Assembly: GCF_041886205.1 (NCBI RefSeq)
Contig: NZ_CP169029.1
Origin: Escherichia coli
GTDB lineage: Bacteria; Pseudomonadota; Gammaproteobacteria; Enterobacterales; Enterobacteriaceae
Length of the DNA stretch: 64,000 nt
Direction: 5' to 3' (one strand)
Part shown: positions 1 to 64,000 of the stretch, piece after piece
How positions within the stretch are numbered: position 1 is the first letter of the stretch
Layout: each line of letters starts with the position of its first letter
Program-made: the position numbers and the translations under genes
The notes under the pieces: generated by a model
Told to the model about the DNA's origin: nothing
The model's database searches: none
The model's input: only the letters and a program-made list of their open reading frames with translations

Positions 1-1
1 A

Positions 2-490
2 AGCCCGCAAATCAAAATTGAAACTCTGGTGCCGGATTTCCGTGGTCGTATGGATCGTGCTCTGGATATTCTGACTGCAACGCCACCAGATGTGTTCAAC
101 CATAACCTGGAAAACGTACCGCGTATTTACCGTCAGGTACGGCCTGGTGCAGATTACAACTGGTCGCTTAAGCTGCTGGAACGCTTTAAAGAAGCGCATC
201 CGGAAATCCCGACCAAGTCTGGTCTGATGGTGGGACTGGGTGAAACCAATGAAGAAATTATTGAGGTAATGCGCGACCTGCGCCGTCATGGTGTGACGAT
301 GTTAACGCTGGGGCAATATTTGCAGCCAAGCCGCCATCACCTGCCGGTTCAACGTTACGTTAGCCCGGATGAGTTCGACGAAATGAAAGCCGAAGCGCTG
401 GCGATGGGCTTTACCCATGCTGCATGCGGTCCGTTTGTCCGCTCTTCTTACCACGCCGATTTGCAGGCGAAAGGGATGGAAGTTAAGTAA
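2..490 (+). CDS. lipA: lipoyl synthase LipA, C-terminal portion (5' end lies outside the window)
   Basis: Frame open to window edge; translation matches LipA C-terminus (...[50 protein letters not shown]). Confidence 0.93.
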
Positions 491-520
491 TCCTGTAATA
501 ATTACTTACATCTGTCTGAT

Positions 521-551
521 AAAAAACCCGCTTTTTGAAGCGGGTTTTTTG
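521..551. terminator. bidirectional intrinsic terminator between lipA and tatE
   Basis: GC hairpin AAACCCGC-tttttgaa-GCGGGTTT flanked by A-run and T-run, between convergent genes. Confidence 0.7.
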
Positions 552-590
552 TATCGAACAAGATATTGAGGGAGCGTCCTGCTCGCCACG

Positions 591-794
591 TCACTCTTTA
601 TGAGAGAGCTTTTCAGCCTGAAGATCAACGTCTGCGCCTTTTTTCGCCGCAGCATCGTCATCATTCATCGCCTTCTTGAACCCTTTAATGGCCGCTCCAA
701 GGTCTCCGCCCAGCGTACGTAACTTCTTAGTCCCAAACAGCAGAACGACCAGCGCCGCAACTACCAGCAGTTTGGTAATACTAATCTCACCCAT
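591..794 (-). CDS. tatE: Sec-independent protein translocase subunit TatE
   Basis: 67-aa [33 protein letters not shown]... matches TatE; ATG start confirmed at 794. Confidence 0.95.
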
Positions 795-922
795 AGATAC
801 CTTCTTGACATATAACCGGCAACAGAACGCGCCTTAAAAACCAGAGAATATTAACGGTCATTCGACGCGCGCACACAATAGCAATCTGTAACAAGGTGAA
901 TCAAGCGCCGAGTAAAAAAACA

Positions 923-1717
923 TCATAATAATTGCGGCGGCGCAAAGCGACGGTTGTTTAAGACGGGCAGTTGCGCGCGCACCTGACGCACACGTTCGGG
1001 CGTCACTTCCGCCATAATGAGTGCAGGCATTTCTGACGCTGCCGCAATGGTGACGCCAAAGGGATCTATAATCCGGCTTTGCCCGATATTTTTGTTCCCG
1101 CACTCCCCCGCCGCCACCATATAACAGGTGGTATCCAGCGCACGAGCGGCAAGCAACGTTGACCAGTGATGCTCTTTGAGTGGCCCGCGAACCCAGGCGG
1201 CAGGAAGTACCAGGATTTCAGCTCCCTGTAATGCCTGTGCCAGCGCCAGCTCTGGAAAGCGTAAGTCATAACAGGTCATCAGACCGACCTTCATCCCCTC
1301 CACCTCGAGTAACGGAGCGATTTCATTACCAGCATCAACATGGCGTGATTCCTGAATGGCAAATGCATCATAGAGATGCAGTTTGGCATAACGGGCGACG
1401 ATGTTTCCTGCCTGTAGCGCCACCAGCATATTCCATGCGCGCCCCGGCGTTGAAGGAACATGAATCGTCAGAATTGTCGTCATCATGTTACGTTTACTTT
1501 CTCGCCGTAAACGTCCGAGGAATTCGCCTTCCAGCAGCTGTGCTGATTTAACCGATAGATCTGCATCATGATCATCGCGCGCCTGCAATGCTTCCGGCAG
1601 GACAAACAGCGATACGTCGTTTTCCGCCGCCTGCGCCATCAACGAGGCACAAATCTCAGCGTTCTTTTCCCACACAGATGTAACAGCAAACTGTCCTGCG
1701 GCAACCAGCATTGCCAC
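923..1717 (-). CDS. ybeM: C-N hydrolase (nitrilase/amidase) family protein YbeM, apparently intact
   Basis: 264-aa uninterrupted ORF with C-N hydrolase-like sequence; start could be 1717 or 1711 (MAMLV/MLV). Confidence 0.85.
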
Positions 1718-1803
1718 CTCCTGTCAGAGTCGTAAAATTCGCCAACGACGATTATTCGGCGTTACACTTATCACTCATACAAATCAAATAGCAGGATTTT
1801 GCA

Positions 1804-2187
1804 GTGTTACAACTTCTTTTAGCAGTTTTTATTGGCGGTGGTACGGGAAGCGTGGCGAGATGGCTGTTAAGTATGCGATTTAACCCACTGCATCAGGCGA
1901 TTCCGTTGGGGACGCTGGCAGCAAACCTGATTGGGGCATTCATCATAGGAATGGGATTCGCCTGGTTCAGCAGGATGACGAACATTGATCCAGTGTGGAA
2001 AGTATTAATCACCACCGGATTTTGTGGCGGTCTAACAACCTTCTCAACATTTTCGGCAGAAGTGGTGTTTTTGTTACAAGAGGGCCGCTTTGGCTGGGCG
2101 TTACTGAACGTTTTCGTCAACCTTCTGGGGTCTTTTGCCATGACCGCACTGGCTTTCTGGCTGTTTTCGGCCTCAACCGCACACTAA
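1804..2187 (+). CDS. crcB: fluoride channel CrcB/FluC
   Basis: 127-aa hydrophobic [26 protein letters not shown]... matches CrcB; GTG start. Confidence 0.93.
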
Positions 2188-2193
2188 AGACCA

Positions 2194-2224
2194 AAAAAAA
2201 CCCGCTGATTAAGCGGGTTTTGAA
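2194..2224. terminator. bidirectional intrinsic terminator between crcB and cspE
   Basis: A-run, hairpin ACCCGCT-gatta-AGCGGGT, T-run; convergent genes on both sides. Confidence 0.7.
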
Positions 2225-2240
2225 TTCTTGCTGACGTATC

Positions 2241-2450
2241 TTACAGAGCGATTACGTTTGCAGCAGAAGGGCCTTTGGCACCGTTAGTGATTTCGAACTC
2301 TACGCGCTGACCTTCAGCAAGAGTTTTAAAACCATTAGTCTGGATTGCAGAGAAGTGTACGAACACGTCTTTGCTGCCGTCTTCCGGAGTAATGAAACCG
2401 AATCCTTTGGACTCATTAAACCACTTAACGTTACCTTTAATCTTAGACAT
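2241..2450 (-). CDS. cspE: cold-shock-domain protein CspE
   Basis: 69-aa [36 protein letters not shown]... ; ORF track start trimmed to ATG at 2450. Confidence 0.95.
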
Positions 2451-2624
2451 CAAAATTACCTTTACATGAAAAATAGACACAAATGCTGTGTCGGTTACCA
2501 GTACACCAATTGTGGTACGCTTTGTCCAGTGCAACTTTACTAAAAAGTGATAAAAGTCGCGTTATTTTTGATGTTACTTATTTTAGTTATTGATTTTAAA
2601 GAAGTTACTAAAACTTCATTTGTC

Positions 2625-3185
2625 TCAAAACTGAAAGCGCATCCAGGCAAAGTAAACATTGCCATTGTTGTAGGTACCCGGAATGTAGGTCATCTGAAAA
2701 GTCACTGGGCCATAACCCACGGAGGCCAATGGCAGTAGAACCGGGAGAGGGATGTAATTCCAGTTATCGCGTGCCGTTACGCCAGCGGTGAATCCCAGAC
2801 CTAAATGAAAATTTTCATCCGCCAGCGGTCGCCAGGTACTTTCCCATCCGTATCCGGCAATCGGTTCCCATTTGTTCCACGAGTCCTTAAATGCCATGGC
2901 ATACAGGCCATGCCAGTTTCCTTTTTCATCCCAACGCGACAGGCCAAAACCGCCACCCCACGGTCGCTCGTTATAGCGATCGGTTTTTTCTTTGTCGTAA
3001 GCGAAACGTGCATGCCAGGTGATGGCAGGAATATATAAATCATAATGTTCAGGCTGTTGCCAGGTTTGTGCAATATTTTCTCTAAACGTTGTCATCCACT
3101 CATCTGCGTTAGCAAAAACTTTACCAACGCTGATTAACTGAATAAAAACAAAGGAAAAGATAGCGACATATTTACTCACGTTCAT
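2625..3185 (-). CDS. pagP: lipid A palmitoyltransferase PagP (CrcA)
   Basis: 186-aa [33 protein letters not shown]... with signal peptide; start trimmed to ATG at 3185. Confidence 0.93.
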
Positions 3186-3670
3186 TTGTGACCATAAAAC
3201 ATTTATCAAAAATCTACTACTAGCATAGCAAAGCTACAATTAACATAACCTTAATAGCCCCAACATAAAGAATAATCTGAATAGCTGCTCTATTTATTTC
3301 CGCTTGTTTAAGTTAAATATTTCCGCGCATCGATTAAAGATGATGCGTCGTTTTCTGCGATGGGAATAGTCAAAAAAGAAAAACCAAGTCTTTTTTGATG
3401 ACAAAATGCAATCAAGGAAATATTTCTTTATTTTTTAATTGGATACAACAATCATCTTAACGAAGTATATAATATATATCGTCAACCCATGCTCATGGTA
3501 GATTATTTTCTGAGCACGCAACCGCAGCTAACACCATTGCGATTAACAAATTTGCATCAATCCCCCATCAATTTACACACATTATTATGTGATAATTGCC
3601 AACCGCTAAATATGCGTTTTGTTATCTACGTATAAAAACAGCAACTTCAATGTGTTAATGGCAGTTTTTC

Positions 3671-3684
3671 TTGATTTTAATCAG
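3671..3684. promoter_or_regulatory. FNR-like box (TTGAT-N4-ATCAG) upstream of dcuC
   Basis: ttgattttaatcag about 95 bp upstream of the dcuC ATG; dcuC is known to be anaerobically induced via FNR; motif match only. Confidence 0.4.
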
Positions 3685-3773
3685 CATTCATCGCCAATTT
3701 ATTGGGCATATTTTTTCCTTAAGTTTTAGGAATTTTTTATTATTTACTTTGGGGCCTGGAGACAGGAAAAATT

Positions 3774-5159
3774 ATGCTGACATTCATTGAACTCCTTATT
3801 GGGGTTGTGGTTATTGTGGGTGTAGCTCGCTACATCATTAAAGGGTATTCCGCCACTGGTGTGTTATTTGTCGGTGGCCTGTTATTGCTGATTATCAGTG
3901 CCATTATGGGGCACAAAGTGTTACCGTCCAGCCAGGCTTCAACAGGCTACAGCGCCACGGATATCGTTGAATACGTTAAAATATTGCTAATGAGCCGCGG
4001 CGGCGACCTCGGCATGATGATTATGATGCTGTGTGGCTTTGCCGCTTACATGACCCATATCGGCGCGAATGATATGGTGGTCAAGCTGGCGTCAAAACCA
4101 TTGCAGTATATTAACTCCCCTTACCTGCTGATGATTGCCGCCTATTTTGTTGCCTGTCTGATGTCACTGGCCGTCTCTTCCGCAACCGGTCTGGGTGTTT
4201 TGCTGATGGCAACCCTGTTTCCGGTGATGGTAAACGTTGGTATCAGTCGTGGGGCAGCAGCTGCCATTTGTGCCTCCCCGGCGGCGATTATTCTCGCACC
4301 GACTTCAGGGGATGTGGTGCTGGCGGCGCAAGCTTCCGAAATGTCACTGATTGACTTCGCCTTCAAAACGACGCTGCCGATCTCAATTGCTGCAATTATC
4401 GGCATGGCGATCGCCCACTTCTTCTGGCAACGTTATCTGGATAAAAAAGAGCACATCTCTCATGAAATGTTAGATGTCAGTGAAATCACCACCACTGCTC
4501 CTGCGTTTTATGCCATTTTGCCGTTCACGCCGATCATCGGCGTACTGATTTTTGACGGCAAATGGGGTCCGCAATTACACATCATCACTATTCTGGTGAT
4601 TTGTATGCTGATTGCCTCCATTCTGGAGTTCCTCCGCAGCTTTAATACCCAGAAAGTTTTCTCTGGTCTGGAAGTGGCTTATCGCGGTATGGCAGATGCA
4701 TTTGCTAACGTGGTGATGCTGCTGGTTGCCGCTGGGGTATTCGCTCAGGGGCTTAGCACCATCGGCTTTATTCAAAGTCTGATTTCTATCGCCACCTCGT
4801 TTGGTTCGGCGAGTATCATCCTGATGCTGGTATTGGTGATCCTGACAATGCTGGCGGCAGTCACGACCGGTTCAGGCAATGCGCCGTTTTATGCGTTTGT
4901 TGAGATGATCCCGAAACTGGCGCACTCTTCCGGCATTAACCCGGCGTATTTGACTATCCCGATGCTGCAGGCGTCAAACCTGGGCCGTACCCTTTCGCCC
5001 GTTTCTGGCGTAGTCGTTGCGGTTGCCGGGATGGCGAAGATCTCGCCGTTTGAAGTCGTAAAACGCACCTCGGTGCCGGTGCTTGTTGGTTTGGTGATTG
5101 TTATCGTTGCTACAGAGCTGATGGTGCCAGGAACGGCAGCAGCGGTCACAGGCAAGTAA
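3774..5159 (+). CDS. dcuC: anaerobic C4-dicarboxylate transporter DcuC
   Basis: 461-aa polytopic membrane ORF matching DcuC over full length. Confidence 0.95.
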   Translation: MLTFIELLIGVVVIVGVARYIIKGYSATGVLFVGGLLLLIISAIMGHKVLPSSQASTGYSATDIVEYVKILLMSRGGDLGMMIMMLCGFAAYMTHIGANDMVVKLASKPLQYINSPYLLMIAAYFVACLMSLAVSSATGLGVLLMATLFPVMVNVGISRGAAAAICASPAAIILAPTSGDVVLAAQASEMSLIDFAFKTTLPISIAAIIGMAIAHFFWQRYLDKKEHISHEMLDVSEITTTAPAFYAILPFTPIIGVLIFDGKWGPQLHIITILVICMLIASILEFLRSFNTQKVFSGLEVAYRGMADAFANVVMLLVAAGVFAQGLSTIGFIQSLISIATSFGSASIILMLVLVILTMLAAVTTGSGNAPFYAFVEMIPKLAHSSGINPAYLTIPMLQASNLGRTLSPVSGVVVAVAGMAKISPFEVVKRTSVPVLVGLVIVIVATELMVPGTAAAVTGK

Positions 5160-23055: not shown

Positions 23056-24277
23056 ATGTCTATTTATAAAATTCCTCTTCCACTCAATATTCTGGAAGCT
23101 GCACGAGAGCGTATTACCTGGACACTCAATACCCTACCCCGCGTTTGTGTCTCATTTTCTGGCGGCAAAGACTCTGGTTTAATGCTGCATCTGACAGCCG
23201 ACCTTGCCCGACAAATGGGCAAAAAAATCTGCGTTTTGTTTATCGACTGGGAAGCGCAGTTCTCATGCACTATCAACTATGTTCAGTCACTACGCGAGTT
23301 TTACGCCGATGTCATCGAAGAGTTTTACTGGGTTGCGCTCCCGCTTACGACGCAAAATTCCCTTTCACAATACCAACCCGAATGGCAGTGCTGGGAACCT
23401 GATGTCGAATGGGTGCGTCAGCCCCCGCAAGATGCGATAACCGATCCTGACTTTTTCTCCTTTTACCAGCCAGGCATGACCTTCGAACAATTTGTACGTG
23501 AGTTTGCCGAATGGTTTTCACAAAAACGTCCGGCGGCGATGATGATCGGCATCCGTGCGGATGAGTCCTACAATCGTTTTGTCGCCATCGCCAGTTTAAA
23601 TAAACAACGTTTTGCCGACGATAAACCCTGGACTACAGCCGCGCCAGGCGGTCATAGCTGGTACATATACCCCATCTACGACTGGAAAGTCGCCGATATC
23701 TGGACCTGGTATGCTAAAAATCAAAGCCTCTGTAACCCACTGTATAATCTGATGTATCAGGCAGGTGTCCCTCTGCGTCATATGCGAACTTGCGAACCTT
23801 TTGGCCCGGAGCAACGGCAAGGATTATGGCTCTATCACGTCATCGAACCGGATCGCTGGGCGGCCATGTGCGCACGAGCCAGCGGAGTAAAAAGTGGCGG
23901 CATTTACGCCGGACATGACAACCATTTTTTATGGACATCGTAAAATCCTCAAGCCGGAACATTTAGACTGGCAGGAGTATGCATTATTGCTACTCAGCAG
24001 CATGCCGGTGAAAACAGCTGAACATTACCGTAATAAAATCGCCATTTATTTGCACTGGTATCAGAAAAAAGGCATCGAGGTTCCACAAACCCAACAAGGG
24101 GACATTGGCGCGAAAGATATCCCCTCCTGGCGGCGAATATGCAAAGTTTTACTCAACAACGATTACTGGTGCCGGGCATTATCATTTAGCCCCACAAAAG
24201 CGAAGAATTATCAGCGTTATAACGAACGGATAAAAGGAAAACGTCAGGAATGGGGGATACTATGCAACAACGATTAA
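23056..24277 (+). pseudogene. ybdN: ybdN (PAPS reductase-like protein) disrupted by a +1 frameshift
   Basis: frame-1 ORF 23056-23943 (295 aa) and frame-2 ORF continuing to 24277 overlap at 23894-23943 around a T6 run (23926-23931); joining them with one base removed gives 406 codons. Confidence 0.75.
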
Positions 24278-49998: not shown

Positions 49999-50089
49999 TT
50001 CGCCCGCAGCCATCACTGACCGCGGGCGAAAGTGTAAAGCAGGTGCCTTACCACCCTGACCTGACAACCGGATATGCGGGGATTACTCC
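49999..50089 (-). repeat. hok mRNA 3'-end segment, copy 1 (contains hairpin CGCCCGC-N14-GCGGGCG), cut off from hokE by IS186-A
   Basis: 91-bp block about 98% identical to 51849-51941; ends in the IS186 target duplication. Confidence 0.7.
50080..50089. repeat. 10-bp target-site duplication of IS186-A (GGATTACTCC; second copy 51429-51438)
   Basis: identical decamer directly abutting both IS186-A ends. Confidence 0.85.
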
Positions 50090-51428
50090 CATAAGCGCTA
50101 ACTTAAGGGTTGAACCATCTGAAGAATGCGACGCCTCGGTGCCTCGTTAAGACGATGCCTCGCGTTCTTCAATTGCGTTTTGTAGGCTGTCAGGGATACT
50201 GTCCCACGAATGGCCACCTGTAAGCTCCAGATGACCATTTTTGTTATTCTCCACAACGAGTTAGTTCTTCTTTTCGGATCCGGCACTTCTGGGGGGGAAA
50301 TCCAGCGATGGCTGGATTATGTCGTCAATTAAAAATGCGGCGAGTAGATTAGCAAATATCCACGCTTTCGCGAGTTCAGGTTCCTTTGCACGCAAAGCAT
50401 CCAGGTGCAGCAAACTTTTGAGCCGCTTAAAAGCCAGTTCAATTTGCCATCGCAGACGGTAACAATCAGCCACTTGCTCTGCTGAATATTCATCTTCCGG
50501 TAATGATGTTAGCAATAGCACATGGCCCGCTGCTTCCAGCGTTTCCGCCTGAACTACTCGTCCTTTTCGACGATTCTCGCTGAGCAGTCGGGTTTTACTG
50601 ATTAATGCTTTTTCGGGAGGAAGTGATACGGCAATGAGACGTGCCGGAAAGGGAGCTCCGGCTTTTTTATTACCTGAATTGCCTATCATTACAGTGGTTT
50701 CACCGTTCTTACCGCAATCCAGCCCGCGCAGAAAACCCATCATGTCAAAGCGCATTCCTTCTGCAGTTAACCAGCGCAATCCTCGCCAGTGAACCCGGAC
50801 GATATAATCAGCTTCTCCAAAAGCAAGTGAGCGGATACATTCGGGACGCGAACCGAATCCCCGGTCAGCAATGCGTATCTCGTCTGCCGTTTGCGCAAAT
50901 CGGTCCAGCCGTTCAGCGTCTCTGCTGTCGGTTAGCTCAAAATCAGTGAACTGACAGGTATGAGGATCATATCCCATATGTAGTCGCCATTCAGCGCTGC
51001 CGCCCCCGGGCGCACTGATTGCTGTTCCATCGACAAGACGCAATCTCTTTCCGCTTGTACAACCCGTAACTGCGGCGCGTACAGCAAGTGTTTGTGCGGC
51101 AAGTATGCCAAACCAGTCGGCGGCATTCCGCAGCCGCTTCAGGAGAGCCACGTCAGATAATGTTGCAACGTCATGGAGCTGAGCCCATGCAGTGACTTCA
51201 CGTAATGACATCCCCCCGGGGCCGTAAGCCAGCCCCAGACGTAGCAGAGTTGCAGCATCACGAATTTCGCGGCGGCGGGTTAGAGCCCCGGCATTACGTG
51301 CCGAAGTATCCAGTTCTTCGGGCTTACCAATATGGGCCAGAATTGCTGACCAGTTATCGTGAGAGTAATTCATCGGCACGTTAAATCATATCAGGCGTAA
51401 TACCACAACCCTTAAGTTAGCGCTTATG
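50090..51428 (-). mobile_element. IS186 (IS4 family) copy A
   Basis: 1339 bp; perfect 23-bp terminal inverted repeats CATAAGCGCTAACTTAAGGGTTG at 50090-50112 and 51406-51428; encodes InsL. Confidence 0.95.
50261..51373 (-). CDS. insL: IS186 transposase InsL
   Basis: 370-aa ORF MNYSHDNWSAILAHIGKPEELDTSARNAG... Confidence 0.95.
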   Translation of the reverse strand: MNYSHDNWSAILAHIGKPEELDTSARNAGALTRRREIRDAATLLRLGLAYGPGGMSLREVTAWAQLHDVATLSDVALLKRLRNAADWFGILAAQTLAVRAAVTGCTSGKRLRLVDGTAISAPGGGSAEWRLHMGYDPHTCQFTDFELTDSRDAERLDRFAQTADEIRIADRGFGSRPECIRSLAFGEADYIVRVHWRGLRWLTAEGMRFDMMGFLRGLDCGKNGETTVMIGNSGNKKAGAPFPARLIAVSLPPEKALISKTRLLSENRRKGRVVQAETLEAAGHVLLLTSLPEDEYSAEQVADCYRLRWQIELAFKRLKSLLHLDALRAKEPELAKAWIFANLLAAFLIDDIIQPSLDFPPRSAGSEKKN

Positions 51429-51449
51429 GGATTACTCCCCGCACAGCGG

Positions 51450-51602
51450 CTACTTCTTCGGTTCGTAAGCGAGAACAGCCTTAAACTCAATATTACGTTC
51501 CTTTACCGTAAACTCACACAACGAGTCTCCGACCAGAAGCGTAAATCCCAGCACCGTCAAACACAGCACTATGACTGCCACAAGGGCATATTTCGTCAGC
51601 AT
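51450..51602 (-). CDS. hokE: Hok-family type I toxin HokE (an in-frame upstream mok extension runs to 51701)
   Basis: 50-aa [53 protein letters not shown]; ATG at 51602. Confidence 0.9.
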
Positions 51603-51848
51603 GTTTATATTGCCTCCATGCGAAGAAGGGACTACCATCCGAGTTGTTGAGGTTCGGAGTGGCAGCCCCAGGATTGATAGAAATTTCTCCTGGGGCTTCA
51701 TCTTTCCAGACCTCAGAGTTAACCTGAAACCGGAAAGCTTCAGGCACCCGCCGTTATCTTACCCTTCCTTAGCAAAATAGCTGTTTATTTATACAGTGAG
51801 TCCTGTTTCGGACTTCTGTCAGCAAAACTCATCATTGCTCTTAAAACG

Positions 51849-51941
51849 AAATCGCCCGCAGCCATCACTGACCGCGGGCGAAAGTGTAAAGCAGGTGCCT
51901 TACCATCCTGACCTGACAACCGGATATGCGGGGATTGCTCC
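51849..51941 (-). repeat. hok mRNA 3'-end segment, copy 2, cut off from the second hok copy by IS186-B
   Basis: near-identical to 49999-50089 (2 SNPs). Confidence 0.7.
51932..51941. repeat. 10-bp target-site duplication of IS186-B (GGATTGCTCC; second copy 53281-53290)
   Basis: identical decamer abutting both ends of IS186-B; differs by one base from the IS186-A duplication. Confidence 0.85.
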
Positions 51942-53280
51942 CATAAGCGCTAACTTAAGGGTTGTGGTATTACGCCTGATATGATTTAACGTGCCGATGA
52001 ATTACTCTCACGATAACTGGTCAGCAATTCTGGCCCATATTGGTAAGCCCGAAGAACTGGATACTTCGGCACGTAATGCCGGGGCTCTAACCCGCCGCCG
52101 CGAAATTCGTGATGCTGCAACTCTGCTACGTCTGGGGCTGGCTTACGGCCCCGGGGGGATGTCATTACGTGAAGTCACTGCATGGGCTCAGCTCCATGAC
52201 GTTGCAACATTATCTGACGTGGCTCTCCTGAAGCGGCTGCGGAATGCCGCCGACTGGTTTGGCATACTTGCCGCACAAACACTTGCTGTACGCGCCGCAG
52301 TTACGGGTTGTACAAGCGGAAAGAGATTGCGTCTTGTCGATGGAACAGCAATCAGTGCGCCCGGGGGCGGCAGCGCTGAATGGCGACTACATATGGGATA
52401 TGATCCTCATACCTGTCAGTTCACTGATTTTGAGCTAACCGACAGCAGAGACGCTGAACGGCTGGACCGATTTGCGCAAACGGCAGACGAGATACGCATT
52501 GCTGACCGGGGATTCGGTTCGCGTCCCGAATGTATCCGCTCACTTGCTTTTGGAGAAGCTGATTATATCGTCCGGGTTCACTGGCGAGGATTGCGCTGGT
52601 TAACTGCAGAAGGAATGCGCTTTGACATGATGGGTTTTCTGCGCGGGCTGGATTGCGGTAAGAACGGTGAAACCACTGTAATGATAGGCAATTCAGGTAA
52701 TAAAAAAGCCGGAGCTCCCTTTCCGGCACGTCTCATTGCCGTATCACTTCCTCCCGAAAAAGCATTAATCAGTAAAACCCGACTGCTCAGCGAGAATCGT
52801 CGAAAAGGACGAGTAGTTCAGGCGGAAACGCTGGAAGCAGCGGGCCATGTGCTATTGCTAACATCATTACCGGAAGATGAATATTCAGCAGAGCAAGTGG
52901 CTGATTGTTACCGTCTGCGATGGCAAATTGAACTGGCTTTTAAGCGGCTCAAAAGTTTGCTGCACCTGGATGCTTTGCGTGCAAAGGAACCTGAACTCGC
53001 GAAAGCGTGGATATTTGCTAATCTACTCGCCGCATTTTTAATTGACGACATAATCCAGCCATCGCTGGATTTCCCCCCCAGAAGTGCCGGATCCGAAAAG
53101 AAGAACTAACTCGTTGTGGAGAATAACAAAAATGGTCATCTGGAGCTTACAGGTGGCCATTCGTGGGACAGTATCCCTGACAGCCTACAAAACGCAATTG
53201 AAGAACGCGAGGCATCGTCTTAACGAGGCACCGAGGCGTCGCATTCTTCAGATGGTTCAACCCTTAAGTTAGCGCTTATG
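51942..53280 (+). mobile_element. IS186 (IS4 family) copy B, inverted relative to copy A
   Basis: 1339 bp; same 23-bp terminal inverted repeats at 51942-51964 and 53258-53280; encoded protein identical to copy A. Confidence 0.95.
51997..53109 (+). CDS. insL: IS186 transposase InsL
   Basis: 370-aa ORF identical to the copy-A transposase. Confidence 0.95.
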   Translation: MNYSHDNWSAILAHIGKPEELDTSARNAGALTRRREIRDAATLLRLGLAYGPGGMSLREVTAWAQLHDVATLSDVALLKRLRNAADWFGILAAQTLAVRAAVTGCTSGKRLRLVDGTAISAPGGGSAEWRLHMGYDPHTCQFTDFELTDSRDAERLDRFAQTADEIRIADRGFGSRPECIRSLAFGEADYIVRVHWRGLRWLTAEGMRFDMMGFLRGLDCGKNGETTVMIGNSGNKKAGAPFPARLIAVSLPPEKALISKTRLLSENRRKGRVVQAETLEAAGHVLLLTSLPEDEYSAEQVADCYRLRWQIELAFKRLKSLLHLDALRAKEPELAKAWIFANLLAAFLIDDIIQPSLDFPPRSAGSEKKN

Positions 53281-53301
53281 GGATTGCTCCCCGCACAACG
53301 G

Positions 53302-53454
53302 CTACTTCTTCGGTTCGTAAGCGAGAACAGCCTTAAACTCAATATTACGTTCCTTCACCGTAAACTCACACAGCGAGTCGCCGACCAGAAGCGTAAATCC
53401 CAGCACCGTTAAACACAGTACTATGACTGCCGCAAGGGCATATTTCGTCAGCAT
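53302..53454 (-). CDS. second Hok-family toxin paralog (ORF intact; mok leader interrupted by IS150)
   Basis: 50-aa [53 protein letters not shown], one substitution versus HokE. Confidence 0.75.
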
Positions 53455-53551
53455 GTTTATATTGCCTCCATGCGAAGAAGGGACTACCATCCAAATTGTT
53501 CAGGTTTGGGTAGGTAGCCCTAGGGTGTACTGACCCCAAAAAGTTGGACAG

Positions 53552-54403
53552 TTAAACACGAGGCATATAGGTCTGATTCCGATATTCAATTGGAGTCAGA
53601 CCTTTTAATTTCAGGCTAATTCTTCTGCTGTTGTAGTATTCAATATATTCCGTAACAGCATCCTTCAGTTCGCTTATATTACTGAACTCATCAAGATAAA
53701 AACACTCCGACTTTAAGGTTCCAAAGAAACACTCCACCACAGCATTATCCAGACAATTGCCTTTTCTGGACATGCTTTGTTTAATACCATGTTCTTTAAG
53801 GATATTTTGATATCTTCTCATACGATACTGCCATCCCTGGTCAGAGTGCAGAACAGGATGCTCGTGAGGATTAAGCTTTTTGAATGCCTGATCGAGCATA
53901 TTCTCAACCATGTTCATCACTGGTCTTTCCGAAAGGCTGTAAGAAATAACTTCATTGTTGAAGAGATCTATTACTGGAGACAAATACAGCTTGCGCCCAT
54001 TGACTGCAAATTCAGTAACATCGGTAACCCACTTCTCGTTTGGCCGCGTAGCCTTGAAATCTCTTTGGAGAACATTGGGGGCGGTTTGCCCTACCTCTCT
54101 TCTGTAAGAGCGGTATCGCTTGACCTTAATCGCTGCCTTAAGTGAGAGGGTTCCCATCAGGCGCTGAACAGCTTTATGGTTAATCTGTTTCCCTTCTCGA
54201 TGAAGAGACAGCGTTACCCTACGGTATCCGTATCGGCCTCTATTCTCATGATAAATCTCACCAATACGCTTTTTAACGCCCGCATACTTGTCAGGCTTGC
54301 TGAGAGCCTTTAGATGGTAATAAAACGTACTGCGCGGTATCTCCGCAGCCCTGAGAAGCTCATCAAGAGGATAAAACTGCCTTAGCTCGTTGAGTACTTT
54401 CAC
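53552..54403 (-). CDS. insK: IS150 transposase OrfB (InsB; catalytic DDE domain)
   Basis: 283-aa [33 protein letters not shown]... Confidence 0.9.
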
Positions 54404-54921
54404 TTTTTCGTGGGATGAGCTAAGGCTTTCAGCTTTTTTAGATACACAAGCCGCGTTTCAAGAAATCGAACTTGCCTTTCAAGATCCTCAATGCGTCGGT
54501 CTTTTGACAGCTCCAATGCTGATGCCGCTTTTTCTGGATCAACTGATATTGCAATGTTTCTTTTGGTGCCAATCTTGAGCGCGCGTAAACCAGCTTCTCC
54601 GCGATCTTCATAAACCTTCAGCCACCTGGCTACAGAACCACTACCAGCAAGCATAAAGTGAGCAGCAGCCTGATTAAGGGACATGTGCTGCTCGATCACA
54701 GCTTTCACGACCTTAATACGCAACTCTGGATCAGCACTAACGCCTTTAGGTTTGGGAATTAAACCTTTTTCTCCATGTTTTTCATAGAGGGCAACCCATG
54801 TCCTGACCTGGGTTCGGGGGACACCAAAACGTGCCGAGATGATCCTGTAACCATCATCAGTTGTGAAGTAGTGATTCACGACTTCAAGGCGCTTTTCAAA
54901 AGGGTATTTTGGCTTTGACAT
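54400..54921 (-). CDS. insJ: IS150 OrfA (InsA; HTH DNA-binding)
   Basis: 173-aa ORF MSKPKYPFEKRLEVVNHYFTTDDGYRIISARF... Confidence 0.9.
   Translation of the reverse strand: MSKPKYPFEKRLEVVNHYFTTDDGYRIISARFGVPRTQVRTWVALYEKHGEKGLIPKPKGVSADPELRIKVVKAVIEQHMSLNQAAAHFMLAGSGSVARWLKVYEDRGEAGLRALKIGTKRNIAISVDPEKAASALELSKDRRIEDLERQVRFLETRLVYLKKLKALAHPTKK
54433..54439 (-). promoter_or_regulatory. programmed -1 ribosomal frameshift heptamer (A AAA AAG) joining IS150 orfA to orfB
   Basis: CTAAAAAAG near the end of orfA in the orfA/orfB overlap, as described for IS3-family elements. Confidence 0.6.
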
Positions 54922-55331
54922 ATTAGGGGCTATTCCATTTCATCGTCCAACAAAATGGGTGCAGTACAGGGTTGATAGAAATATCTCCTGGGGCTTCATC
55001 TTTCCAGACCTCAGAGTAAACCTGAAACCGGAAAGCTTCAGGCACCCGCCGTTATCTTACCCTTCCTCAACAAAATAGCTGTTTATTTATACAGTAAATC
55101 CTGTTTCGGACTTCTCACTCCTCATTTAATCAACTGAAGCTGAACCCGTTTTTTCTGCATGCCTCAATCGTCAAAATTCTTCGCCGCCAGCCAGCTAAGA
55201 CGCAACTGGTCACATTGCAAAAGTAGCCAAATTACTTCAGTCACCATCACCAAAAAAAAGAAACATTCCAGAACTTCCGCATCTCGCCCAGCCGCTCCCA
55301 CTTCTATACTGAATGGAAAACGCCAACATAA

Positions 55332-56459
<1,128 letters not shown>

Positions 56460-56524
56460 GCCGGGAATTGCCTTACAGAAGAATATCCCTGACAATGGTG
56501 TTTTAACTTACATTTAACAATGTT

Positions 56525-56773
56525 ATGAAACACCCTTTAGAAACCTTGACTACCGCAGCAGGCATTTTGCTGATGGCTTTCCTCTCTTGCCTGCTGCTGC
56601 CCGCCCCCGCACTGGGGCTGACGCTGGCACAAAAACTGGTGACCATGTTCCATCTGATGGATCTTAGCCAGCTTTACACTTTATTGTTTTGTCTGTGGTT
56701 TTTAGTGCTGGGCGCTATTGAGTATTTTGTTCTGCGCTTTATCTGGCGACGCTGGTTCTCGCTGGCGGATTAA
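56525..56773 (+). CDS. ybdJ: small inner-membrane protein YbdJ
   Basis: 82-aa [33 protein letters not shown]... Confidence 0.85.
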
Positions 56774-56837
56774 ACGTCGAATATCGCCGTACTTCGCGGC
56801 ATACTTTGCTTATTCTCCTTCGCCTAAAGGAACGTTT

Positions 56838-57206
56838 ATGGATAAGCAATCACTGCACGAAACGGCGAAACGCCTAGCCCTTGAGTTACCCTTTGTCGAG
56901 CTTTGCTGGCCTTTTGGCCCGGAGTTCGATGTTTTTAAAATTGGCGGCAAAATTTTTATGCTGTCGTCGGAGCTGCGCGGCGTCCCCTTTATCAATCTGA
57001 AGTCCGATCCACAAAAATCCCTGTTAAATCAGCAGATATACCCGAGCATTAAGCCAGGGTATCACATGAATAAAAAGCACTGGATTTCGGTGTATCCCGG
57101 CGAGGAAATCTCCGAAGCGTTACTTCGCGATCTGATCAACGATTCGTGGAATCTGGTGGTTGATGGTCTGGCTAAACGCGATCAAAAAAGAGTGCGTCCA
57201 GGCTAA
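56838..57206 (+). CDS. ybdF: uncharacterised protein YbdF
   Basis: 122-aa [33 protein letters not shown]...; ATG at 56838. Confidence 0.88.
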
Positions 57207-57299
57207 AGCGGAAATCTATAGCGCATTTTTCTCGCTTACCATTTCTCGTTGAACCTTGTAATCTGCTGGCACGCAAAATTACTTTCACATGGAGTCTTT

Positions 57300-57953
57300 A
57301 TGGATATCATTTCTGTCGCCTTAAAGCGTCATTCCACTAAGGCATTTGATGCCAGTAAAAAACTTACCCCGGAACAGGCCGAGCAGATCAAAACTCTCCT
57401 GCAATACAGCCCATCCAGCACCAACTCCCAGCCGTGGCATTTTATTGTTGCCAGCACGGAAGAAGGTAAAGCGCGTGTTGCCAAATCCGCTGCCGGTAAT
57501 TATGTGTTCAACGAACGTAAAATACTTGATGCCTCGCACGTCGTGGTGTTCTGTGCAAAAACCGCGATGGACGATGCCTGGCTGAAGCTGGTTGTTGACC
57601 AGGAAGATGCTGATGGCCGCTTTGCCACGCCGGAAGCGAAAGCCGCGAACGATAAAGGTCGCAAGTTCTTCGCTGATATGCACCGTAAAGATCTGCATGA
57701 TGATGCAGAGTGGATGGCAAAACAGGTTTATCTCAACGTCGGTAACTTCCTGCTCGGCGTGGCGGCTCTGGGTCTGGACGCGGTACCCATCGAAGGTTTT
57801 GACGCCGCCATCCTCGATGCAGAATTTGGTCTGAAAGAGAAAGGCTACACCAGTCTGGTGGTTGTTCCGGTAGGTCATCACAGCGTTGAAGATTTTAACG
57901 CTACGCTGCCGAAATCACGTCTGCCGCAAAACATCACCTTAACCGAAGTGTAA
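57300..57953 (+). CDS. nfsB: oxygen-insensitive NAD(P)H nitroreductase NfsB
   Basis: 217-aa [34 protein letters not shown]... Confidence 0.95.
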
Positions 57954-58012
57954 TTCTCTCTTGCCGGGCATCTGCCCGGCTATTTCCCCTCAGATTCTCC
58001 TGATTTGCATAA

Positions 58013-59308
<1,296 letters not shown>

Positions 59309-59310
59309 TT

Positions 59311-59358
59311 AAAAAAACCGCTCTCATCGAATGGATGAGAGCGGACATCGTTTTGTCG
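59311..59358. terminator. bidirectional intrinsic terminator between ybdG and pheP
   Basis: A-run, hairpin CCGCTCTCATC-gaatg-GATGAGAGCGG, T-rich tail. Confidence 0.7.
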
Positions 59359-59375
59359 GATGTAGCGTGAATGCC

Positions 59376-60752
59376 TTATTTCCGACGCAGCGTTTTAAAT
59401 GCCACAAACAGGAATACAATCCACACCGGCAGCAGGATCGCTGACAAGCGCATATCATCCATCGTGCACATCAGCAGCAAAATCATGCCGAGGAAGGCAA
59501 TGCAAAGATAGTTGCCGAACGGATAGAGCAGCGCCTTAAACTGTGTTTCACGCCCCTGACGTCGCATCGCTGCACGAAAACGCAGATGCGCCAGGCAGAT
59601 CATAATCCAGTTCAACAGCAGCGTTGCTACCACCAGCGCCATCAGCAGACCAAACGCTTTTTGCGGCAGCAGATAGTTGATTAATACCACCAGCGAAGTG
59701 ATCGCTCCGGAAAGCATCAGCGAATTAATCGGCACACCGCGACGGCTGACGCGAGTCAAAAACTTCGGCGCATTACCCTGCACAGAAAGGCCAAACAGCA
59801 TGCGGCTGTTAGAGTAAACCCCGCTGTTATACACTGACAGCGATGCTACCAGAATGACAAAGTTCAGCGCAGAAGCTACCACGTTGCTGTCGAGATTATG
59901 GAAAATCATCACAAACGGGCTACTGTTGGATTTCACTTCCACCCACGGATAGAGCGCCAGTAAAACCACCAGTGAGCCGATGTAAAACAGCAGGATGCGA
60001 TACACCACCTGATTTACCGCTTTTGGAATGCTTTTTTCCGGATCGCGCGCTTCAGCGGCAGTAATCCCAATCAGCTCCAGACCGCCGAAGGAGAACATAA
60101 TTACCGCCAGCGACAAAATCAGCCCATTCCAGCCGGTGGCAAAGAAACCACCGTAGCGCCAGAGGTTGTCGATACTGGCTTTCTCGCCGCCGTGACCAGA
60201 AAACATCAGCCACAGGCCAAAGCCGATCATACCGATGATCGCCAGCACTTTAATCAGCGCAAACCAGAACTCGGTTTCACCATATAAGCGCACGTTCACC
60301 AGGTTAACGGCGTTGATGATAATAAAGAAGGCGGCAGCCCAAATCCACGTTGGAACATCCGGGAACCAGTACTGCATATAGATGCCCGCAGCGGTCAGCT
60401 CTGCCATTCCCACCAGCACGAACATTACCCAGTAGTTCCAGCCAGAGAGGAAGCCCGCAAACGGTCCCCAGTATTTATAGGCAAAGTGGGCAAATGAACC
60501 GGATACCGGCTCTTCGACCACCATCTCGCCAAGCTGGCGCATAATCAGGAAAGCGATGATCCCGGCGACGCCGTAGCCCAGCAATACAGCCGGACCCGCC
60601 ATCTGAATCGCCGGACCAATGCCAAGAAACAGACCAGTACCAATTGCGCCACCCAGCGCAATCAGTTGAATATGACGGTTATGTAATCCGCGATGAAGCG
60701 TCGGCTCTTGATTCGACGCAGTATCTTCCGATACGGTTGACGCGTTTTTCAC
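59376..60752 (-). CDS. pheP: phenylalanine-specific permease PheP (APC family)
   Basis: 458-aa ORF (GTG start) MKNASTVSEDTASNQEPTLHRGLHNRHIQLIALGG... Confidence 0.94.
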   Translation of the reverse strand: MKNASTVSEDTASNQEPTLHRGLHNRHIQLIALGGAIGTGLFLGIGPAIQMAGPAVLLGYGVAGIIAFLIMRQLGEMVVEEPVSGSFAHFAYKYWGPFAGFLSGWNYWVMFVLVGMAELTAAGIYMQYWFPDVPTWIWAAAFFIIINAVNLVNVRLYGETEFWFALIKVLAIIGMIGFGLWLMFSGHGGEKASIDNLWRYGGFFATGWNGLILSLAVIMFSFGGLELIGITAAEARDPEKSIPKAVNQVVYRILLFYIGSLVVLLALYPWVEVKSNSSPFVMIFHNLDSNVVASALNFVILVASLSVYNSGVYSNSRMLFGLSVQGNAPKFLTRVSRRGVPINSLMLSGAITSLVVLINYLLPQKAFGLLMALVVATLLLNWIMICLAHLRFRAAMRRQGRETQFKALLYPFGNYLCIAFLGMILLLMCTMDDMRLSAILLPVWIVFLFVAFKTLRRK

Positions 60753-60853
60753 GCCTTTCCCCTGTGTGTCTTTTTTGTTGAGGGGCACCTTTTAACATTT
60801 AGTGCCCATCGTCGCAAGACACAATCCACACGGTTAAACGGGGTATCCTGCTT

Positions 60854-63800
60854 TTATTTCCGTACCCGATGTCGGTGCAGCCACATCAGCTTATACGCCG
60901 CCGGGATAATAAACAGCGACAGCAAAGGTGCGGTGATCATGCCGCCAATCATCGGTGCGGCAATCCGGCTCATCACCTCTGAACCAGCCCCCGTTCCCCA
61001 CAGAATCGGCAGCAGACCGGCGATAATCACCGCCACCGTCATCGCTTTCGGGCGCACGCGCAGTACCGCGCCGTGATACAACGCCTCATCCAGCTTCTGC
61101 TCACTGAATGTTTGCGGATTATTCAACGACGGCTCGGCCTCTATGGCGTGACGTAAATACATCAGCATCACCACGCCAAATTCGGCAGCGACCCCGGCAA
61201 GGGCAATAAAACCGGTGCCCGTTGCCACAGAAAGATGAAAGCCCATCCACCACAGCAACCAGATGCCGCCCACCAGCGCAAACGGTACGCTGCTGATAAT
61301 CAGCAACGCTTCGCCCACCCGACGGAATGCCAGATACAACAGCACGAAGATGATCATCAGTGTCATCGGCACCATGAGTTTCAGCTTATGGTTGGCGCGC
61401 TCCAGTAGCTCGAACTGCCCGGAGAATGCCACGCTGGTGCCCGGTTTTAACTGCACTTTTTCAGCTATCGCTTTTTGCAAATCGTGAACCACCGACACCA
61501 TGTCACGATCGCGGGCATCGATATAAATCCAGCTCGTCGGGCGCGCATTCTCGGTTTTCAGCATCGACGGTCCGGTAGAGACTTTAATGTCGGCCACGTC
61601 TGCCAGGGTGATTTGCTGCTTCATCGGCGTCAGGATCGGCAGCTGGCGCAGTGCCTGCGGACTATCGCGCCAGCTTTGCGGATAACGCAGATTAATTGGA
61701 TAACGGGCAATCCCTTCCACCGTTTCGCCAACCATCGCCCCGCCCACCGCAGAAGTCACAAACAACTGCACATCCGCCACCGTCATACCGTAACGTGCGG
61801 CTTTTTCACGGTTAATCTCAACGTTGATATAGCGCCCACCTTCCAGCCGCTCGGCAAGCGCAGAAGCTACGCCTGGCACCGTTCGCGCCACTTCTTCAAT
61901 TTGCTCCGCCATCGCGTCGATATCCGCCAGCACAGTGCCGGAAACTTTAATGCCGATGGGGCTTTTAATGCCGGTTGAGAGCATATCGATACGGTTACGA
62001 ATTGGCGGCACCCACAGATTCGCCAGCCCCGGCAGACGCACGGTGTTATCCAGTTCCTCAATGATTTTGTCCATCGTCATGCCTGGCCGCCACTGCTCCT
62101 GCGGCTTAAGCTGGATGGTCGTTTCTACCATCTCCAGCGGAGCAGAATCGGTGGCGGTTTCCGCTTTCCCGGTTTTGCCAAATACCCGCGCCACTTCAGG
62201 TACGCTCATAATTAGCTTGTCGGTTTTTTGCAGCATACTCGCCGCCTCTGCTGCGGAAATCCCCGGCAGCGTCGATGGCATATACAACAAGTCGCCTTCA
62301 TTGATCTGCGGTAAAAATTCCCCGCCAACTTTATTGAGCGGCCAGAGAACCGTCAGCACCGAAAGCGCCGCCACCAGCAGCGTGGTTTTCGGCCAGTGCA
62401 GTACTTTCAGCAACAGCGGATGATAAACACGAATCAAAAAGCGATTGAGCGGGTTACTGCTTTCCGGCGGAATTTTGCCACGGATCCAGTAGCCCATCAG
62501 GATCGGGATCACTACGATCGCCAGCAGCGCCGCACCCGCCATCGCATACGTTTTGGTGAACGCCAACGGGCCAAACAGACGCCCTTCCTGCCCTTCCAGG
62601 GTGAAGATCGGGATAAACGACAACGTGATAATCAGCAGACTGATAAATAGCGCCGGCCCCACTTCAACAGACGCATCGGTGATCACCTGCCAGCGCGTTT
62701 TATTATCCAGCGTGGCGTCAGGATGCTGGTGCTGCCACTCTTCCAGCCGTTTATGTGCATTTTCGATCATGACGATAGCGGCATCGACCATCGCCCCGAC
62801 GGCAATCGCAATGCCGCCCAACGACATAATATTGGCATTCAGTCCCTGGAAGTGCATGACAATAAAAGCAATACACAACCCCAGCGGCAACGAAATAATC
62901 GCCACCAGCGCCGAGCGCACATGCCAGAGAAACAGCGCACAGACTACCGCCACCACAATAAACTCTTCCAGCAACTTGCCGCTGAGGTTGTCGATGGCGC
63001 GGTCAATGAGCTGGCTGCGATCGTATGTTGTAACTATCTCCACGCCTTCCGGCAGACTACTTTTCAGCGTTTCCAGTTTGTCCTTCACGGAGGCGATCAC
63101 TTCTCGGGCGTTTTTGCCGGAGCGCAGGATCACCACCCCGCCCGCCACTTCACCTTCGCCATTCAGTTCGGCAATGCCCCGGCGCATCTCCGGGCCAATC
63201 TGGACCTTCGCAACATCACGCAGATAAACGGGCACGCCATTTTCACTGGCTTTTAAAACGATGTGATTAAAGTCGTCGAGCGTTTGCAGATAGCCGCTGG
63301 CGCGCACCATATATTCCGCTTCCGCCAGTTCGATCGACGAACCGCCCGCTTCCTGGTTTGAAGCATCCAGCGCGCTTTTTACTTCGGCGAGACTGATGCC
63401 ATATTGCGCCAGGCGCTGGGGATCGATAATCACCTGATACTCTTTCACCACACCGCCCACCGACGCCACTTCCGCAACGTCAGGGATGGTTTTCAGCTCA
63501 TATTTGAGAAACCAGTCCTGCAATGAGCGTAAATCGGCAAGATCGTGCTTACCGCTGCGATCCACCAGTGCATATTCATAGATCCAGCCAACACCCGTGG
63601 CATCTGGCCCCAGCTCGGCGCTGACTCCCGCAGGCAGCTTACCCTGTACCTGGTTGAGGTACTCCAGCACCCGCGAGCGCGCCCAGTATGGATCGGTGCC
63701 ATCTTCGAAAATGACATACACATAAGAGTCGCCAAACTGTGAGAAACCGCGCACAGTCTTCGCGCCAGGCACCGACAACATCGTGGTGGTTAGCGGATAA

Positions 63801-63997
63801 GTCACCTGATTTTCAACGATTTGCGGTGCCTGACCGGGATAGCTGGTTTTAATAATCACCTGTACATCGGAGAGATCCGGCAGCGCATCCACTGGCGTGT
63901 TAATGATGGTCCAGGTGCCCCAGATACTCAGAAACAACGCGCCCATCAGTACCAGAAAACGGTTCGCCACCGAGCGACGAATAATCCATTCAATCAT
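60854..63997 (-). CDS. cusA: Cu(I)/Ag(I) efflux RND transporter CusA
   Basis: 1047-aa [32 protein letters not shown]...; complete, start 3 bp from window edge. Confidence 0.96.
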
Positions 63998-64000
63998 TGG

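Follow-up and report, generated by a model that had tools for sequence, protein, structure and literature searches.

Why is ybeM a single open gene in one Escherichia coli genome when the reference strain MG1655 carries it as a pseudogene? The question was raised by a window of 64,000 nt of E. coli DNA (contig NZ_CP169029.1), which is the whole stretch analyzed here. It is very probable that window 923-1711 holds a functional ybeM allele encoding a 262-aa cytoplasmic C-N hydrolase amidase, the bacterial counterpart of Nit1, and that its lineage never gained the deletion found in K-12 and in a related natural lineage. From the sequence we infer that YbeM is expressed and enzymatically active. 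A whole-word literature search for 'ybeM' returned only peripheral mentions, none of which bears on the finding of an intact gene: NsrR ChIP peaks nearby, over-expressed out-of-frame ybeM fragments that lead to filamentation, and a GWAS of conjugation.

In the list of open reading frames, ybeM occupies window 923..1717 on the minus strand as a single uninterrupted ORF, 264 aa from a GTG and without an internal stop. The first-pass annotation had accordingly described an intact gene of 264 codons. Its coordinates and length agree with the ORF list, but the start probably does not stand, as 264 codons is the length of the maximal ORF and 262 codons is likelier. The start is most likely the ATG at 1711, which gives a CDS at 923..1711 (minus strand) of 262 codons and a TGA stop. 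This choice was made because the in-frame GTG responsible for the longer ORF (1715..1717, minus strand) overlaps the Shine-Dalgarno sequence, and because PGAP and the MG1655 annotation both use the ATG at 1711. The ATG is preceded, at a distance of 5 nt, by the Shine-Dalgarno-like AGGAGG at 1717..1722 (minus strand). In the sequence itself, the first G of the GTG (1717-1715) is also a base of this motif (1722-1717), whose function is presumed. In genomes with DNA identical to that of the window, PGAP places a 789-nt CDS (WP_001490911.1) from this ATG, and the MG1655 record begins ybeM at the same one. It is thus unlikely that the GTG is a genuine start. A simple scan for promoters and terminators found nothing beyond shuffled expectation and no strong minus-strand sigma-70 promoter for ybeM. 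When window 1-4000 was scanned with Rfam, no RNA family turned up between ybeM and crcB. Further along, the cspE leader and coding region (window 2193-2635, minus strand) matches the cspA thermoregulator RF01766 with 123.9 bits against a gathering score of 78, which is taken to reflect the paralogy of cspA and cspE.

With the frame settled, the window can be compared with the reference. In MG1655, ybeM is annotated as the pseudogene b4581 with a length of 788 nt. Pairwise alignment of the reverse complement of window 850-1800 with MG1655 gives 940 identical positions out of 951, with 10 substitutions and one gap, where the window reads GGACGTTTAC and MG1655 reads GGAC-TTTAC. The base in question is the G of codon 67 (CGT, Arg67; C on the plus strand), nt 200 of the CDS at window position 1512 (minus strand), which is present in the window and absent from MG1655 and from 860 complete genomes. 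As a result of this deletion, the MG1655 frame stops after 75 residues, keeping E40 and losing K110 and C147. Once the base is restored, MG1655 differs from the window by 10 nt and four residues (V33A, V37A, Q43L and H124R). The two loci are orthologous with identical flanks, although b4581, unlike the window gene, lacks the G at codon 67 and carries V33A and V37A. Since the G is present at 1512, the window does not have the K-12-type pseudogene allele. The statement in the first-pass annotation that ybeM is frameshifted in MG1655 is therefore borne out by both the b4581 entry and the single-base deletion in the alignment. The opposite possibility, that the reference gene is equally intact and identical, fails on that deletion and the accompanying substitutions. 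The ybeM of the window seems unusual only because the K-12 reference has lost one base.

The family to which the protein belongs is evident from profile searches. YbeM matches the Pfam family CN_hydrolase (PF00795) with an E-value of 2.2e-40 and 139 bits against a gathering cut-off of 23.2, and the match is full-length, spanning residues 5-247 of the protein and positions 2-255 of the 256 in the profile. It also scores above the cut-off of the curated NCBIfam model for de_GSH_amidase, NF033621 (448.5 bits vs. 355), in an alignment that runs end to end from protein residues 5-263 to profile positions 2-260 of 260. Both matches add to the ORF list and PGAP in supporting the CDS. With such an E-value for CN_hydrolase and with the region found in 5,424 of 5,426 complete E. 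coli genomes, the intact ORF is beyond chance. The gene lies between tatE and crcB in the neighborhood lipA-tatE-ybeM-crcB-cspE-pagP-dcuC, as it does in MG1655, REL606, H10407 and O157, and RefSeq genomes with this synteny give its product the name 'deaminated glutathione amidase'.

Among solved structures, the nearest to YbeM is the Nit domain of C. elegans NitFhit (1ems, E 9e-30), followed by yeast Nit2 (4h5u, E 9e-27), which we take to be the yeast orthologue of Nit1, and then by mouse Nit2 (2w1v, E 2.6e-22). E40, K110, C147 and E121 of YbeM align with E54, K127, C169 and E143 of NitFhit, respectively. We take the first three of these NitFhit residues to be the catalytic triad and E143 to be a conserved second glutamate, roles that reportedly go back to work by Pace and colleagues in 2000. 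In the window, the predicted catalytic glutamate Glu40 is encoded at 1592..1594 (in a motif LPE that starts at residue 38), the predicted catalytic lysine Lys110 at 1382..1384 (AKLH from residue 109) and the predicted nucleophile Cys147 at 1271..1273 (TCYD from residue 146), all on the minus strand. YbeM and the eukaryotic Nit1 proteins (1ems and 4h5u) thus belong to a common fold family with an aligned Glu-Lys-Cys triad and second Glu, while being distant in sequence. The fusion to Fhit seen in NitFhit is absent from YbeM, as are the insertions of yeast Nit2, which leaves YbeM shorter. The omega-amidase Nit2 (2w1v) has the superfamily and catalytic chemistry in common with YbeM at a lower level of similarity.

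The name given to the protein in RefSeq derives from a model match and not from an assay of this sequence. Together with the presence of Nit2-type proteins among the solved relatives (2w1v), this could mean that YbeM is a C-N hydrolase with some other substrate, either an omega-amidase of the Nit2/YafV kind or else a nitrilase, and that 'dGSH amidase' has merely been transferred by homology. Such a reading is extremely unlikely. The Nit1-type structures (1ems and yeast Nit2) outscore mouse Nit2, and the models of other C-N hydrolase enzymes are all well under their own cut-offs, e.g., 61.6 bits against 249 for the amidohydrolase PRK10438, which places YbeM outside that branch. Moreover, a study by Peracchi and colleagues (PNAS 114:E3233, 2017) reportedly found E. 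coli Nit1 homologues to be efficient dGSH amidases.

If YbeM is a deaminated glutathione amidase, as we favor, its role would be one of metabolite repair or salvage. The substrate would be deaminated glutathione (dGSH, 2-oxoglutaryl-cysteinylglycine), which arises as a by-product when transaminases act on glutathione. By analogy with the family, Cys147 would act as the nucleophile on the amide carbonyl of dGSH, with Glu40, Lys110 and Glu121 probably assisting. A thioester intermediate would then form, and its hydrolysis would yield 2-oxoglutarate and cysteinylglycine. The same hydrolysis of deaminated glutathione is the proposed reaction of eukaryotic Nit1, which is described as a salvage enzyme for this compound in a review that cites the 2017 study (PMC7041631). 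According to that review, mice, yeast, cell lines and Arabidopsis come to no harm when Nit1 is lost. This fits the tolerated loss of ybeM in E. coli.

How widespread this loss is can be seen across the species. A 71-nt probe from MG1655 that bridges the deletion finds an exact match in 860 of the 5,424 complete genomes with the region, and the others align with a gap or mismatches. The K-12 deletion is therefore absent from ~84% of complete E. coli genomes, and intact ybeM is the majority state and the species norm. An intact gene for one and the same protein, WP_000959109.1, is present in REL606 (E. coli B), ETEC H10407 and an O157:H7 strain. It matches that of the window in locus, length (262 aa, 789-nt CDS), synteny and product name, with 6-8 of 789 nt differing between these alleles and the window. 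The pN/pS ratio among five intact alleles is 0-0.16, which is consistent with purifying selection.

The deletion itself is not confined to the laboratory. When 10 of the exact matches to the deletion probe were sampled, eight were natural isolates. In two natural isolates with the deletion, one from human stool in Mozambique and one from river water in Japan, ybeM is annotated as 'frameshifted', and their alleles, once repaired, are the intact allele of ETEC H10407. MG1655 has two missense changes beyond the H10407 allele, V33A and V37A. This haplotype has an exact probe match in 365 genomes, of which four were sampled and all four were K-12 laboratory strains, so it looks K-12-specific. Because wild isolates carry the deletion on the H10407-type allele, and V33A and V37A are limited to laboratory strains among those sampled, the deletion is a natural polymorphism older than K-12, present in roughly 500 non-K-12 genomes, and not a laboratory artifact. 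After the deletion, K-12 ybeM gained two non-synonymous changes and no synonymous ones, a pattern as expected for a dead gene, albeit with tiny numbers.

A different kind of disruption is found in UTME-9 (H100, NZ_CP157110.1), where dcuC, pagP, cspE, crcB, ybeM, tatE, lipA and ybeF are all flagged as frameshifted. As every neighboring gene is affected together with ybeM, we took this disrupted copy as an assembly error and rejected it; the frameshifts almost certainly represent uncorrected long-read indel error. Errors of this type call for caution with pseudogene counts in the collection of complete genomes.

An open frame does not by itself mean a working enzyme, and the allele of the window has changes of its own. 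Its protein (WP_001490911.1) differs from the common WP_000959109.1 at two residues, L43Q and R124H. Codon 43 (1583..1585, minus strand) is CAG for Gln, among the alleles compared, only in the window and in identical DNA, and Leu is found in the five other intact alleles of the comparison. R124H is also found in the allele of a B2 urinary isolate. L43Q lies three residues past Glu40, and R124H three residues past Glu121. These substitutions could impair or change the activity, making ybeM a decayed gene with an intact ORF, either a cryptic pseudogene or one with a shifted substrate range. L43Q does occur in the window alone among the six alleles compared, the DNA of the ybeM region is found in only 6-7 of 5,424 genomes, and loss of the enzyme is evidently tolerated, given the frameshift in 860 genomes and the harmless loss of Nit1 in other organisms (PMC7041631). 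Nevertheless, we consider decay very unlikely. All four catalytic residues are intact, the NF033621 score is far over its cut-off, and pN/pS between the window and the other alleles is 0.09-0.22. The substitutions do not look damaging either, because NitFhit has a polar residue, Asp57, opposite position 43, so that a polar residue there is acceptable, and because R124H is common to the B2 strain, whose protein is annotated with the same product. From the sequence comparison there is no reason to expect that L43Q or R124H causes a loss of function, and a functional allele remains the preferred reading.

If an intact ybeM is the norm, what does it reveal about the origin of the window? The first-pass annotation had suggested that the window does not come from the MG1655 reference, and this holds: in addition to the 10 substitutions and the indel in 951 nt, the window is 98.4-98.8% identical to MG1655 in the parts compared, save for the hokE/entD-fepA segment at about 97%, and the hokE locus is different. 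The extra IS elements noted there were also found. In MG1655, one IS186B alone comes after sokE-hokE, while the window has an IS150 (about 53526-54968) and two inverted copies of IS186/IS421 (50075-51443 and 51927-53295) that are 99.6% identical to each other. Segments of hokE/sokE are duplicated at 51406-51817 and 53258-53526, and 54967-55115 repeats 51669-51817. The full arrangement of the hokE region (window 50000-55115) occurs in only three of 5,426 complete genomes, on different backbones. E. coli B was considered as a source and rejected, as REL606 reaches only about 98.7% identity across the region that both have and differs at 6 nt in ybeM. The window is instead a rare haplotype. Only six complete genomes match its 951-nt ybeM region at 100% identity and one at 99.9%, and window 1-25000 reaches at least 99% identity in only 10 of 5,425 genomes, with most of the species near 98%. 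The closest complete genome is that of the wild isolate wlxctx60, which came from Japanese black bear feces. Against the window it shows 10 mismatches in 1-50,329 and one in 53,258-64,000, and its insertion sequences at hokE are arranged differently. The exact source of the window is thus absent from the 5,426 complete RefSeq genomes.

The window also appears to have a pseudogene of its own alongside the intact ybeM. At 23056-24277 (plus strand), ybdN is broken into two ORFs, of 295 aa and 127 aa, that overlap, and the near-identical wlxctx60 has ybdN annotated as 'frameshifted'.

The value of ybeM as a strain marker can now be weighed. The first-pass annotation had proposed the gene as a marker and not a novelty, and it is indeed no novelty, being a named enzyme in a known place. 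As a marker, however, the intact copy is weak, since ~84% of genomes are without the K-12 deletion, and its presence therefore rules out no more than K-12 and a single natural lineage. What discriminates is the set of window-specific substitutions (L43Q) together with the haplotype as a whole.

The biological weight of the finding is thus slight, and its value is one of provenance: the window is neither a K-12 derivative nor E. coli B. Speculatively, the rare Gln43/His124 YbeM might have an altered activity or substrate preference, and more broadly the deletion common to ~16% of complete genomes, many wild isolates among them, could mean that in a single successful lineage the loss of dGSH repair was adaptive and not neutral, although we think both very unlikely. 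Where K-12 is used as the 'wild type', it should be kept in mind that its ybeM frameshift is a natural allele, to which two missense changes were added later.
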